Below are positions 17,309 to 21,150 of a stretch of 29,646 bases of DNA, piece after piece. Made by a program: the position numbers and the translations under genes. This DNA is from Candidatus Hodarchaeota archaeon. GTDB taxonomy: Archaea; Asgardarchaeota; Heimdallarchaeia; Hodarchaeales; Hodarchaeaceae. The stretch is from assembly GCA_029856365.1 (NCBI GenBank), contig JAHQWW010000032.1:1-29646 (forward strand). The letters run 5' to 3'. Under the pieces are notes generated by a model that was given only the letters and a program-made list of their open reading frames with translations, did no database searches and was not told where the DNA came from. Positions within the stretch are counted from its first letter, which is position 1, and every line of letters begins with the position of its first letter.

Positions 17309-19249
17309 TTGGAACGCAAAAATCCCAAATTGGTCTTTATTCAAAGTATTGCAGAGCAAGAACGGCGCTTAGATCAAAAAATATCATCCGAAGCCAAATC
17401 AGTAATCAAAAACCTTCAACGACAACCCAAGTCCTATTATTCAATAGGGGATGTAGAGGATTTAGTTGAAAAGCTCAAAAAACAGATGCAGTCAATCAAT
17501 AAATCAGCTCACACGGAATTTTCGAAGATAGGATTGAAAGGAGTAGATAATCTCGATTTGCTTGGTTCTGAGGCCACGTTGATCACGAATGAGGAGTTTG
17601 AACAACTCAAGGAAGAAAATCAAAAGTTACAAGAGAAAGTATTTGAAAACAATGCATTAGAAATGAAAATTGACGATCTTCATATTTTACTTGATGAAAA
17701 GGAAACAGAAATTGCTCAATTGAAAAACCAATCAGGCATTGATTCTGGGAAAGTTTCGTCACAAATTGAGGACTTAAATCGTCTCCAAGAGACCCTTGAT
17801 GAAGCTCAACGTGAATTGAAGAAAGCTGTTCAAGATCGTGAAAAGATGGAAACTGAATTTGAAACTGTTGGTAATGCATTAATGTCCGCAAGGCTCGAAA
17901 TAGAGCAACTTCAAGAGGTAATTGGGAATAAAGACCAAGAAATTGAGACTATAACTTCTGAAAACAATATCGAAATTGAAAACTTGAAATCAGAGGTTCA
18001 AGTATTAACCACTCAATCTGAGGAGAATGTTAAACTAAAGGAAACAGTTGAAACTCTTCAAAAAGAAATTCACAAACAAAAGACAACATTGAATGAAAAG
18101 CTCCAATTGAAGGAGGATTACATCAATCAAGTGAATCAACAAATCCAAGACATGAAGCAAAACGAAAAACAGCTAAAAGAACAGATTTCAAAGCTGGAAC
18201 AAGAAAATGAAGATTTACTACTAGATTCAGGTGAAACAAGTCAGGAAGCAGTTGCTATTCGCAGTAAATTGGATGAAACACAACAAATTCTTGATCAGAA
18301 AGAAGATGAGAATAGAGAACTCCATCTTAGAGTAGAGAGGAGTGAGAAAGAAGTCGAAATACTTTCAGAACAGATAACTAATCTAAAAGAGGAAAATAAA
18401 CAAGTAAAACAAAATTTTGAAATGTTAACTCTAGAAATAACTACCCAAAAACAAGATTTGGGCGAAAAAACAATTGAAGTAGAAGAGATCCAAGAACGAT
18501 TAGATAATGCCCAAGAACTTATTGACAACCTCCAAAGCTCTAAACGATCATTAGAGACTCGAGTGAATGATTTAGAAATAGATCTGAAAGGAAAAGACGA
18601 ACGTATTTATACAATTGAATCTGATCGTAATGAATTACGGGAAACTCTTACAAGCTTGAAAATTGAGCATGAGAAACAGAAAACATCGTTAGTAGATCTC
18701 AAAACTCAACTTAGCACAAAAGATCGCGAGCTGGAAGGAAGACAAAAGGATTTGGAAGTTTTGAGACAAAGACAAGAAGAAATTACTCAACAAGCCGACG
18801 CCTCTCGTTCTAAACAAGCTGAAATCGCACGCGAGTGCGATAAATATGAAAACATGATAAAAGATCTTCAAACACAGCTGATTGACATTAAAGCAGAGAA
18901 AGAACAAAGTGAGAAGAAGTTAAATGATATTAAAGCTGAATTAAGAGAAAGGGACACAGAAATCTCGACCCTGTCTGACATAAAGTCACAACTAGAACAA
19001 AAATCAGCTAATTTAATGACCGCAGTGGAAACATTAAGGATTAATCTTGCTAAGAACCCCAAATATGCAATATTATTTATTCTACAGGACATTCAACAGG
19101 CAAATTTAACCGAGCTTGCTAAAACTGTTGCCATTCAAAATATCTTTGCAACACGCTTGTTAAAGGAACTTGAATCGGAGGGATGGGTTAGTTTCAACGA
19201 AGAAAATGGTCAGGTTACATTGAAAAAAGCAATCCTAGAACTTGACTAA
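17309..19249 (+). CDS. Long coiled-coil protein with C-terminal winged-helix (wHTH) domain
   Basis: About 480 aa of E/K/Q/L heptad repeats. C-terminus PKYAILFIL..ANLTELAKTVAI..FATRLLKELESEGWVSFNEENGQVTL fits a wHTH pattern. No Walker A motif. Confidence 0.8.
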   Translation: MERKNPKLVFIQSIAEQERRLDQKISSEAKSVIKNLQRQPKSYYSIGDVEDLVEKLKKQMQSINKSAHTEFSKIGLKGVDNLDLLGSEATLITNEEFEQLKEENQKLQEKVFENNALEMKIDDLHILLDEKETEIAQLKNQSGIDSGKVSSQIEDLNRLQETLDEAQRELKKAVQDREKMETEFETVGNALMSARLEIEQLQEVIGNKDQEIETITSENNIEIENLKSEVQVLTTQSEENVKLKETVETLQKEIHKQKTTLNEKLQLKEDYINQVNQQIQDMKQNEKQLKEQISKLEQENEDLLLDSGETSQEAVAIRSKLDETQQILDQKEDENRELHLRVERSEKEVEILSEQITNLKEENKQVKQNFEMLTLEITTQKQDLGEKTIEVEEIQERLDNAQELIDNLQSSKRSLETRVNDLEIDLKGKDERIYTIESDRNELRETLTSLKIEHEKQKTSLVDLKTQLSTKDRELEGRQKDLEVLRQRQEEITQQADASRSKQAEIARECDKYENMIKDLQTQLIDIKAEKEQSEKKLNDIKAELRERDTEISTLSDIKSQLEQKSANLMTAVETLRINLAKNPKYAILFILQDIQQANLTELAKTVAIQNIFATRLLKELESEGWVSFNEENGQVTLKKAILELD

Positions 19250-19282: not shown

Positions 19283-20128
19283 ATGGAATCCAAAGTTATC
19301 CTCAGAACATGCCAGGAGAATCTAGTTGGACTCGACGAAGAAATTCAGTTAATCCTTGCTGCAATTAATAGCCAAATTGCTACTGTTATTGAGGGAGAGT
19401 CAGGTGTCGGTAAGACTGAATTAGTTAAAACAATAGCAAAGGCTCTCGGACGACCCTTTTATCGAGTTGACGGAGATGAAAATCTCACAATCACTCACCT
19501 TCGAGGATGGTTTGACCCACCTTTGGTCATGAAAACAGGTTTTGGTGAAGAAAGTTTCATCCCTGGCCCATTAGTCAATGCTATGCAACAAGGAGGATTA
19601 TTTTTCTTTAATGAAGTTAATCGCGCTCCGAGTGAATCCATAAATGGTGTTCTTGCAGCCCTAGATGAACGACAAATTGAAATTCCCCAGCTTGGGCGAG
19701 TTCAAGCAAAAAATGAATTTTACTCAATTTTTGCTAGAAATCCTGCAGAATATATAGGAACCAATCCATTACCAGAAGCATTTTTTGACAGATGTATTTT
19801 AATTCGCTTAGAACACAAATCTGGTGATGAAGCGAAAAGAATTGTTCGACTTAGGACGAATTACACTGATGATGATCTAATAGCGAAAATTGTTCTTTTT
19901 ACTGATCGAACACGATATTCAGCGAATTTTGAAGCAGGAGCAAGTGTACGGGCCGCAATTCAGCTCACTCAACTTCTGAAAAACAGGCCAACAACTCCCG
20001 ATGTTATTTTTCCCGCCATTTATGCGGTTTATTCAGGTAAAGTCAAACTGCATCCAGATATTAATAAAACAGTTGAAGACTGCCTTTTTGAAATCGCAGA
20101 ACCGATTTTTTTCCCAAAAAAATCTTAA
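19283..20128 (+). CDS. MoxR-family AAA+ ATPase (CoxD/GvpN-like)
   Basis: Walker A GESGVGKT, variant Walker B FFFNEVNR, FIPGPL, RNP.EY.GT.PLPEAFFDR, ASVRAAI. Confidence 0.9.
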   Translation: MESKVILRTCQENLVGLDEEIQLILAAINSQIATVIEGESGVGKTELVKTIAKALGRPFYRVDGDENLTITHLRGWFDPPLVMKTGFGEESFIPGPLVNAMQQGGLFFFNEVNRAPSESINGVLAALDERQIEIPQLGRVQAKNEFYSIFARNPAEYIGTNPLPEAFFDRCILIRLEHKSGDEAKRIVRLRTNYTDDDLIAKIVLFTDRTRYSANFEAGASVRAAIQLTQLLKNRPTTPDVIFPAIYAVYSGKVKLHPDINKTVEDCLFEIAEPIFFPKKS

Positions 20129-20150
20129 GGCGGGACAACGATCCCGCTTT
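20107..20150 (+). other. Candidate -1 programmed ribosomal frameshift signal (slippery heptamers plus stem-loop)
   Basis: In-frame T_TTT_TTC (20107-20113) and A_AAA_AAA (20116-20122). Hairpin AAGGCGGGA-caacga-TCCCGCTTT (20127-20150). The -1 frame is open from 20092 into the vWA ORF. Confidence 0.6.
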
Positions 20151-20190
20151 TCATTTTCAGGCTGTTCATGATACAAAAATTCACACCCAT

Positions 20191-21150
20191 TTGCTTGAAA
20201 AAATCTATGAGTATCAGCTACAAAACAAATTAAATATTGAAATCGCTCTAGAATTAACAAAACAGGCACTGGAAACGCAAAACATACAAGTTATCGAAAT
20301 TCTAGCTGAAAATTATCCACGAACTGTTGTAGAAGTTCTGCAAATTGATCCTAATAATGCTGATTTTATTTTAGAATCTAATTCTTTATTTTTTCAAATT
20401 AAAGAGCACTTTTCGCCGAAGGAAAAACAGATACTCTTACAAAAGCTTATTCCTAAATTATTTAGGCAAGCTAAAAGAATATTTCACGCAATTGATCGTA
20501 CAAGATACCCTATGAAGATTCCCTATGTCCCTGGTAGTTCATGGGATTTGGAAAAAACAGTAGCTAATTTTCTTCTTTCAGGGGACTCTTACTTTACTTA
20601 CAATCATGTTATTTGTAGTAAAAGAAAATGGAAACAAAAATATGCTGTATTACTAATTGATAAGAGTCATTCGGTATTAAGTTATCTCAAACTGATTATT
20701 CTCACATCTATTTTGTTTAGCTTAACACTCAATATAAAAGAAATTTCTTTGATTGGCTTCGATACCCGAACAGAAGTTATTAAAGGATTCATTGACTCAC
20801 AGATGACTACACAGGACATCATTACCAAGCTAGTTAATATTCGTTCTGGGGGAAAGACTGATATCTTTTTGGCTTTAAAAGCAGCAAAAAAAGAATTTTC
20901 CCACCAAATTGGAGGAAAAAAAACTCTTATTATAATATCTGATCTCCTTGCCACAAGTGGAATGGATTTTCTACCCATTCTAAGTCAAATGGAGGACGTC
21001 CGTGTCATTCTTACTCCACGACGCCAAACACTCCAACTTACCTCTCCCATTCTCGGAAAACTGAGAAAATTGCCCAATATTAAGCTCTATTTAATGAAAC
21101 CTGATGAACGGACAATTCCTGCAATGTTGGAAAAAGTTCTGTATGATTAA
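20191..21150 (+). CDS. von Willebrand factor A (vWA/MIDAS) protein, CoxE-like MoxR partner; possibly translated as a -1 frameshift fusion to the AAA+
   Basis: MIDAS motif LLIDKSHS, GGKTDI, IIISD; DLEKTV motif. Only a TTG without an obvious RBS near the 5' end. Confidence 0.85.
   Translation: MLEKIYEYQLQNKLNIEIALELTKQALETQNIQVIEILAENYPRTVVEVLQIDPNNADFILESNSLFFQIKEHFSPKEKQILLQKLIPKLFRQAKRIFHAIDRTRYPMKIPYVPGSSWDLEKTVANFLLSGDSYFTYNHVICSKRKWKQKYAVLLIDKSHSVLSYLKLIILTSILFSLTLNIKEISLIGFDTRTEVIKGFIDSQMTTQDIITKLVNIRSGGKTDIFLALKAAKKEFSHQIGGKKTLIIISDLLATSGMDFLPILSQMEDVRVILTPRRQTLQLTSPILGKLRKLPNIKLYLMKPDERTIPAMLEKVLYD

Follow-up and report, generated by a model that had tools for sequence, protein, structure and literature searches.

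We propose that a MoxR-class AAA+ ATPase open reading frame (ORF) and the start-less vWA ORF that overlaps its 3' end are probably a single gene, decoded by -1 recoding at an A_AAA_AAA heptamer that lies just ahead of a hairpin; judging from the sequence and its conservation, we put the probability of this reading at roughly 0.7. The locus lies in a 29,646-nt stretch of DNA, analyzed whole and called here the window, from a Candidatus Hodarchaeota archaeon whose metagenome-assembled genome (G000) comprises 4.24 Mb, is 84% complete, and has a GC content of ~35%. The anatomy of the junction (Table 1) is conserved across two families.

The AAA+ ORF ends ...ATT TTT TTC CCA AAA AAA TCT TAA. In the -1 frame, a TGA at 20089-91 is followed by uninterrupted sequence until the stop at 21148-50, and the first ATG occurs only at ~20512, roughly 107 codons past the TTG at 20191. 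Ribosomes that slipped on the A run would enter the vWA frame at ATC (20122-24) and make the sequence ...IFFPKK/ILRRDNDPAF... (slash at the junction), a product of 280 + 342 = 622 aa; its predicted tryptic junction peptides are ILR and RDNDPAFHFQAVHDTK, after ...IFFPKK. Every coordinate of the original prediction was correct on recheck, as were its 622-aa fusion and 281-aa ATPase. Both of its X_XXY_YYZ heptamers are in 0-frame phase, the vWA frame is free of stops from 20092 as claimed, and the TTG is the sole early start codon, with the first ATG about 100 codons in. Separately, the T7-CCC-A7 inverted repeat at 20104-20124 self-folds as a 9-bp A-U hairpin. We dropped this U7/A7 repeat as a functional element because it is not conserved in relatives; it is probably incidental, although it could compete with ribosome access.

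Table 1. Features of the AAA+-vWA locus in the window, and examples of the sister-family element
Feature	Coordinates	Strand	Remarks
646-aa coiled-coil protein with winged-helix-like C-terminal end	17309..19249	+	Ends 33 nt before AAA+ start
MoxR-class AAA+ ATPase ORF (0 frame; 281 aa, short product)	19283..20128	+	Pfam AAA_5, AAA_3
-1 frame ORF, vWA partner	20092..21150	+	Open from 20092; VWA_2, VWA_CoxE
T7 run	20106..20112	+	T_TTT_TTC at 20107-13 in 0-frame phase; encodes IFF motif
Slippery heptamer A_AAA_AAA (A7), proposed -1 shift site	20116..20122	+	In 0-frame phase
0-frame stop TAA	20126..20128	+	One codon past heptamer
Candidate stimulatory hairpin	20127..20150	+	20127-20135 pairs with 20142-20150; 9 bp, 6-nt loop 20136-41
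TTG, gene callers' vWA start	20191..20193	+	Only early start codon in vWA frame; not conserved
MIDAS motif DxSxS (D-K-S-H-S)	20659..20673	+	D, S, H, S invariant in 17-sequence alignment
Kink-turn-like element, example in L022	L022:2883-2941	-	Behind A7 heptamer
Kink-turn-like element, example in L021	L021:2880-2938	-	Behind A7 heptamer
Kink-turn-like element, example in L056	L056:268-330	+	Behind A7 heptamer

The lengths of the two homopolymer runs matched among independent assemblies, which agree on A7 and T7 and not on A8 or T8. Region 19900-20400 contained no indel in four assemblies drawn from three or more studies, all of them Logan contigs, which cannot display starts, ends, or A-run heterogeneity. 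Two of the four are possibly the source of the window DNA itself, and a third, from another study, spans 19992-20174. The fourth represents a mangrove strain with 11 substitutions; the sole substitution within the hairpin, at 20138, falls in the loop. Among the runs listed as containing this DNA, none was recorded as RNA. Homopolymers are error-prone and fused homologs exist, so a homopolymer sequencing or assembly error, or a recent pseudogenizing frameshift in a once-fused gene, has to be weighed. It is already contradicted, and we give it practically no credence: the phase is identical in 46 genomes, including the closed chromosomes CP070695.1 and CP070760.1, the four assemblies lack any indel, and the vWA ORF is clearly conserved, MIDAS residues included.

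We searched 40 related genomes in six frames and recovered the vWA ORF in 20, among them Candidatus Hodarchaeum mangrovi, Heimdallarchaeota B3_Heim, and two closed chromosomes. At these same-genus loci, identity is 62-94% for AAA+ and 50-86% for vWA. A class-wide profile search of 83 genomes, in which orthologs scored E <= 1e-47 and a paralogous family E ~1e-22, gave a second (sister) family with 26 scored ortholog loci from four genera (43-51% identity for AAA+, 27-32% for vWA).

This comparison led to three main observations. First, the vWA frame was -1 in 20/20 same-genus loci, where it opens 13-91 nt ahead of the AAA+ stop, and in 26/26 scored loci of the second family, where the ORFs overlap by 22-31 nt. 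With -1 in 46 of 46 homologs, the phase is not random. Second, an in-phase A_AAA_AAN heptamer was present at all 46 ortholog loci. It is preceded by a codon for R, P, S, K, T, or L whose third base is always A (46/46), and the AAA+ stop follows 0-5 codons past it in every locus and 0-2 codons past it in 42. The A run varies between 6 and 13 among the 20 same-genus loci, and the second family has an invariant in-phase A_AAA_AAA_G with a stop 1-2 codons later. Third, in the stretch that runs from the heptamer to LLEKIYEYQLQ, the first conserved block, the vWA frame held no stop in either the genus or the second family. The other two frames of the same linker interval held 32 + 37 stops in the genus (463 codons) and 52 + 28 in the second family; linker length differs between loci, with the vWA frame kept throughout. 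Since phase, heptamer, and ORF overlap recur at all 46 scored ortholog loci, the arrangement reflects more than chance.

Two slippery heptamers had originally been proposed, and only the one on the A run held up. The T7 run is not conserved: its codons, which specify a conserved IFF motif, vary synonymously in relatives (ATT TTC TTC, ATA TTC TTC), and roughly half of the congeners, such as L004, L007-L009, L011, L013, and L016-L019, have a -1-frame stop that separates T7 from the A run. Only the A run is therefore credible as a shift site. In L017 and L018, the distance from the -1-frame stop to the 0-frame stop is just 13 nt, an interval containing only the A heptamer.

The expectation that the vWA ORF lacks a proper start was borne out in homologs. 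The position of TTG 20191 reads TTA CTT in the closest relative, and among same-genus loci the earliest potential starts fall anywhere between +1 and +288 nt past the A run. L007 has no possible vWA start within 600 nt, and there is no conserved Met in the 17-sequence vWA protein alignment. Public gene calls for the vWA orthologs range from 288 to 361 aa. We considered that these might be two ordinary genes, with vWA translation starting at TTG 20191 or at a non-canonical codon, perhaps through termination-reinitiation, and with the hairpin acting as an attenuator or processing site. Public annotation does contain separate "VWA domain-containing protein" genes, a TTG is present here, and an internal Met accompanied by a Shine-Dalgarno-like motif is conserved in some relatives. 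However, the closest relative has no such TTG, candidate starts are scattered or, in L007, missing over 600 nt, and translation from the first candidate start would cost several congeners the conserved LLEKIYEYQLQ block. At 46/46 loci the frame is already open, and locked in phase, ahead of any start; relatives contain in-frame fusions, and the T tract behind the hairpin is not conserved. We regard a two-gene arrangement as very improbable.

The second and paralogous families carry a conserved ...RGRM... 25-35 codons past the junction (e.g., L051 and L052). It is written AGA GGT CGA ATG, with a Shine-Dalgarno-like GAGGT 3 nt ahead of an in-frame ATG; the paralog in G000 itself has a Leu (TTA) at the position of this Met. 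Going by the motif, RGRM-bearing loci may also produce free vWA protein through initiation within the ORF. Independent vWA initiation in the window's genus is unlikely.

Natural AAA+-vWA fusions were found in two places. In a third family, the ortholog (L049; G041:C74, 1285-1449) is one 643-aa in-frame AAA+-vWA ORF, and its junction, ...FPPKKRFIPKEPDF... / ...LFPPKKRFIPKEPDF..., parallels the one predicted for the window. The other, P0064 (L056:1501-3357), is a 618-aa fusion from a Hodarchaeales MAG that is colinear with both ORFs, with 37% identity across the AAA+ part and 29% across the vWA part. Immediately upstream of P0064 lies a frameshift-type pair with an A8 run and an 8-bp hairpin, so one genome holds both forms. 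On a vWA tree rooted with paralogs, the frameshift-bearing clade received 100/100 support, and both fusions grouped within it, next to the second family and on long branches. Because they lie within this clade, the fused polypeptide is a real protein form in the orthologous group.

The hairpin behind the heptamer has a dG of -13.1 kcal/mol (z = -3.7 versus shuffles). Its original description, a 9-bp stem with one G-U pair (20129-20148) and a 6-nt loop that begins 4 nt past the A run, with the G-C core beginning 7 nt past, was accurate. The core, GCGGG/CCCGC (20130-34 / 20143-47), is invariant in 16/20 congeners, at a fixed spacing of ~6-7 nt from the heptamer. Its codons are rare in this genome (CGG, 7.9% of Arg; GAC, 21% of Asp; CCC, 15.5% of Pro) and are nonetheless retained in the 16 loci, where synonymous sites are otherwise saturated. 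The outer pair alternates between G-C, A-U, and G-U among congeners; the core never varies, so we offer no covariation for the genus hairpin, and its support comes down to rare-codon invariance. Overlap of the hairpin with a conserved peptide, R-D-x-x-P-A, counts against RNA-level selection.

Four congeners deserve mention. L009 has TCGGGA in place of GCGGGA. L008 has an A10 run, and its hairpin has no 5' arm because of either a deletion or an assembly fault. L013 (A11 run) and L015 (A10 run) have no hairpin, a loss that may mark a switch toward transcriptional slippage. Rfam returned no family at E <= 1 for 19900-20400. We also considered the hairpin and the T tract behind it as a terminator, which would have spoken against the original prediction; because relatives do not keep that T tract, we rejected this reading.

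Three hallmarks of a -1 frameshift site are thus found together at the locus: an in-phase X_XXY_YYZ, a structure ~5-9 nt downstream, and an open -1 ORF without an initiation signal of its own. The programmed -1 frameshift also came through the comparisons among relatives, with a conserved -1 phase and in-phase A-rich heptamer, a hairpin at fixed spacing, and no conserved vWA start.

The second family has a differently sequenced structure at the equivalent place behind the heptamer. Compensatory stem changes, which the original prediction had proposed to look for, are absent from the invariant core of the window's genus but affect 7/8 pairs of the second-family stem. The covariation score of this stem was 0.353, against 0.211 +/- 0.025 for shuffles (0/500 as high) and at most 0.207 for slid controls. 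RNAalifold returned an invariant outer GGU/ACC helix with its base 8 nt past the heptamer. The internal loop, GA opposite GAUGA, matches the kink-turn consensus of a stem, a 3-nt bulge, and tandem G.A pairs. In a purely sequence-based test, the pattern GGN-GA-[canonical stem]-NNN-GA-NCC matched 23/26 sister-family loci and 0/20 loci of the window's genus (window included), with a genome-wide background of 21 matches in 8.5 Mb. A kink turn fits the sister family and not the window, since the window's genus carries a plain GC hairpin. We tried an H-type pseudoknot for the sister family by eye and rejected it because the connecting loops are too short. The sister-family element (GGUGA...GAUGAACC), of the form GGU-GA-[covarying 6-8 bp stem]-GAU-GA-ACC with an invariant core, resembles Kt-7 and box C/D.

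Fused protein could also arise if the polymerase added one A in some transcripts, in which case ordinary translation would give the same product. The spread of A-run lengths from 6 to 13 among congeners fits such transcriptional slippage, as do the long runs of the hairpin-less L013 and L015. Likewise, the yield of chelatase reporters in E. coli increased with run length, with 10%, 40%, and 63% frameshifting on A7, A9, and A11, respectively (PMC3711429). On the other hand, transcriptional slippage needs neither a run phase nor a third-position A, yet both are conserved at 46/46 loci, and a structure at a fixed spacing of ~6-8 nt is the signature of a ribosomal stimulator. Moreover, seven congeners have only A6 (A_AAA_AAC or A_AAA_AAT), a run that is short for efficient polymerase slippage. 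We consider transcriptional slippage an unlikely explanation of the locus overall. The two kinds of slippage may coexist, and the transcriptional kind may be the main one in hairpin-less relatives with A10-A13 runs.

Paralogous pairs have junctions of their own. In the same genome, a MoxR-vWA pair on the minus strand (L024; contig C24, ~2440-2540) overlaps by 37 nt in -1 phase. Its junction reads CGT TTT TTA TAG, with an in-phase T_TTT_TTA, and is followed by a 6-bp GC hairpin, CCCGAG-CAAACT-CTCGGG. Among paralogs of other families (L051-L055 are examples), 6/7 loci have NNT TTT NNN, a stop, and -1 phase. The L025 paralog is in +1 phase and has its own ATG.

Domain assignments place the first ORF in the MoxR class, with the vWA/MIDAS partner encoded directly downstream. 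The first ORF scored 77.5 bits for Pfam AAA_5 (cut-off 22) and 54.8 bits for AAA_3 (cut-off 27), and the second scored 38 bits for VWA_2 (cut-off 27) and 31.3 bits for VWA_CoxE (cut-off 26.4). The closest solved structures to the AAA+ ORF are MoxR 2r44, NorQ, CbbQ, and single midasin AAA domains. We discounted a special relationship with midasin: the E value of 4e-39 is a sum over six AAA domains, and the best single midasin AAA domain, at 40.8 bits, is near the 44 bits of the bacterial MoxR 2r44. ChlD identity was ruled out by the score for the ChlI/ChlD-type equivalog TIGR02031, 19 bits against a cut-off of 499.55, and no Mg_chelatase Pfam family appeared in the first ORF at E <= 0.1. CobN/ChlH (PF02514) was not found in G000, which is 84% complete, while control genomes gave matches.

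We modeled the vWA-frame product with AlphaFold (pLDDT 80). The model has a disordered linker (first 17 residues; 20116-20166), a helical domain (residues 18-125; 20167-20490), and a vWA fold (residues 133-343; 20512-21144). Its top fold match was the NorD VWA domain in NorQD complexes (9qhd_G, E 2e-8), and the MIDAS domains of Rea1 and MDN1 were also among the top matches. These came from the fold search alone; by sequence, the vWA profile found no relative in the PDB. Besides the DxSxS motif, further MIDAS-type residues, the T of SGGKT and the D of SDLLAT, are invariant in the 17-sequence alignment. Upstream, the last 130 aa of the coiled-coil/wHTH protein directly precede AAA+ in 19/19 same-genus loci that have this flank, and this protein is a possible client or partner of the AAA+-vWA module.

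We infer the slip itself, its efficiency, the co-assembly of its product, and the client, and we suggest the following sequence of events. The AAA+ ORF would share one transcript with the -1 ORF that overlaps it. Most ribosomes would read CCA AAA AAA TCT and stop at the TAA at 20126, releasing the 281-aa MoxR-class ATPase. A minority would pause at the GC-rich hairpin, which has its base 4-7 nt past the heptamer, and there the two lysyl-tRNAs on A_AAA_AAA (20116-22) could re-pair one base back, so that translation would resume at ATC 20122. The -1 shift would thus compete with termination one codon later. The long product of 622 aa would consist of the AAA+ domain, a disordered linker of ~17 aa, the helical domain, and the MIDAS-bearing vWA. 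If NorQ6-NorD1, ChlI/ChlD, and midasin are a guide, the fusion may join free AAA+ protomers in a hexameric ring with a tethered vWA adaptor. It is reasonable, by analogy with NorQD and ChlI/ChlD, that a majority of free AAA+ and a minority carrying the vWA would set the stoichiometry of the ring.

The closest precedent is frameshifted chlD, from which the locus differs in AAA+ family, partner, and context. The chlD precedent invoked by the original prediction is real (PMC3711429, PMC9227772): a -1 shift on A7, A9, or A11 runs links the AAA+ half to the vWA half (PMC3711429), and the family is present in bacteria and archaea (PMC3711429, PMC9227772). Shared with it are an A-rich -1 site, usually with RNA structure downstream, that joins AAA+ to vWA/MIDAS (PMC3711429, PMC9227772), a small AAA+ and a medium AAA+-vWA subunit from one gene (predicted, in our case), annotation as two adjacent genes, and the existence of natural fused homologs. 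A C-terminal vWA with a MIDAS is present here as well, whereas a ChlI/ChlD-type AAA+ and CobN/ChlH were not found. The AAA+ is instead MoxR-class (AAA_5/AAA_3), the vWA is CoxE/NorD-like, and the conserved neighbor is the coiled-coil/wHTH protein rather than a tetrapyrrole gene.

NorQ/NorD, CbbQ/CbbO, and RavA/ViaA also pair a MoxR-class AAA+ hexamer with a vWA/MIDAS adaptor encoded immediately downstream (PMC13036017, PMC9976466). In NorQD, the vWA domain sits atop the hexamer, with a finger extension in the central pore (PMC13036017). Those adaptors are separate genes with their own starts, whereas the vWA frame here has no conserved start and would have to be entered from the AAA+ frame. 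Eukaryotic Midasin/Rea1 (AAA_5 x 6 plus a C-terminal MIDAS) similarly combines AAA_5-type modules and a MIDAS in one polypeptide. Another archaeal cellular gene, fucA1 of Saccharolobus solfataricus, has the slippery site A_AAA_AAT. This gene is expressed by -1 frameshifting (PMC1616953; PMC8211752). A 2021 review, which mentions methanogen chelatase genes as candidates, names it as the only experimentally proven archaeal case (PMC8211752). The two ORFs of fucA1 encode one enzyme, which is functional only in its full-length form; here, in contrast, short and long products are expected to cooperate, and the site is conserved over two archaeal families. A literature search for MoxR-vWA or Asgard frameshifting found no paper, and the original prediction likewise knew of no such archaeal MoxR-vWA pair.

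A broader reading is possible but tentative, and we hold it with well under even confidence. It would have a deeply conserved cellular -1 frameshift, in the archaea nearest to eukaryotes, build a ring of free AAA+ subunits and about one AAA+-MIDAS fusion, as a modular counterpart of midasin with its six AAA domains and single MIDAS. The slip site would have been kept while the stimulator turned over, with a plain GC hairpin in the window's genus and, in the sister family, a kink-turn-like element that a protein such as L7Ae could regulate; the same-genome paralog would do likewise on a U run, and recoding would be the normal way to set AAA+:vWA stoichiometry in these archaea.

If the proposed frameshift is real, this would be a second AAA+-vWA family with a frameshift, chelatases being the only AAA+-vWA precedent, and one conserved over two Heimdallarchaeia families, with the natural fused relatives serving as an internal control. 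The vWA genes would then be mis-started or truncated in public annotation. The heptamer-plus-hairpin cassette would offer a defined test piece for frameshifting on ribosomes from Asgard or eukaryote-like archaea, and the arrangement suggests a route by which MoxR rings may gain a sub-stoichiometric vWA adaptor.
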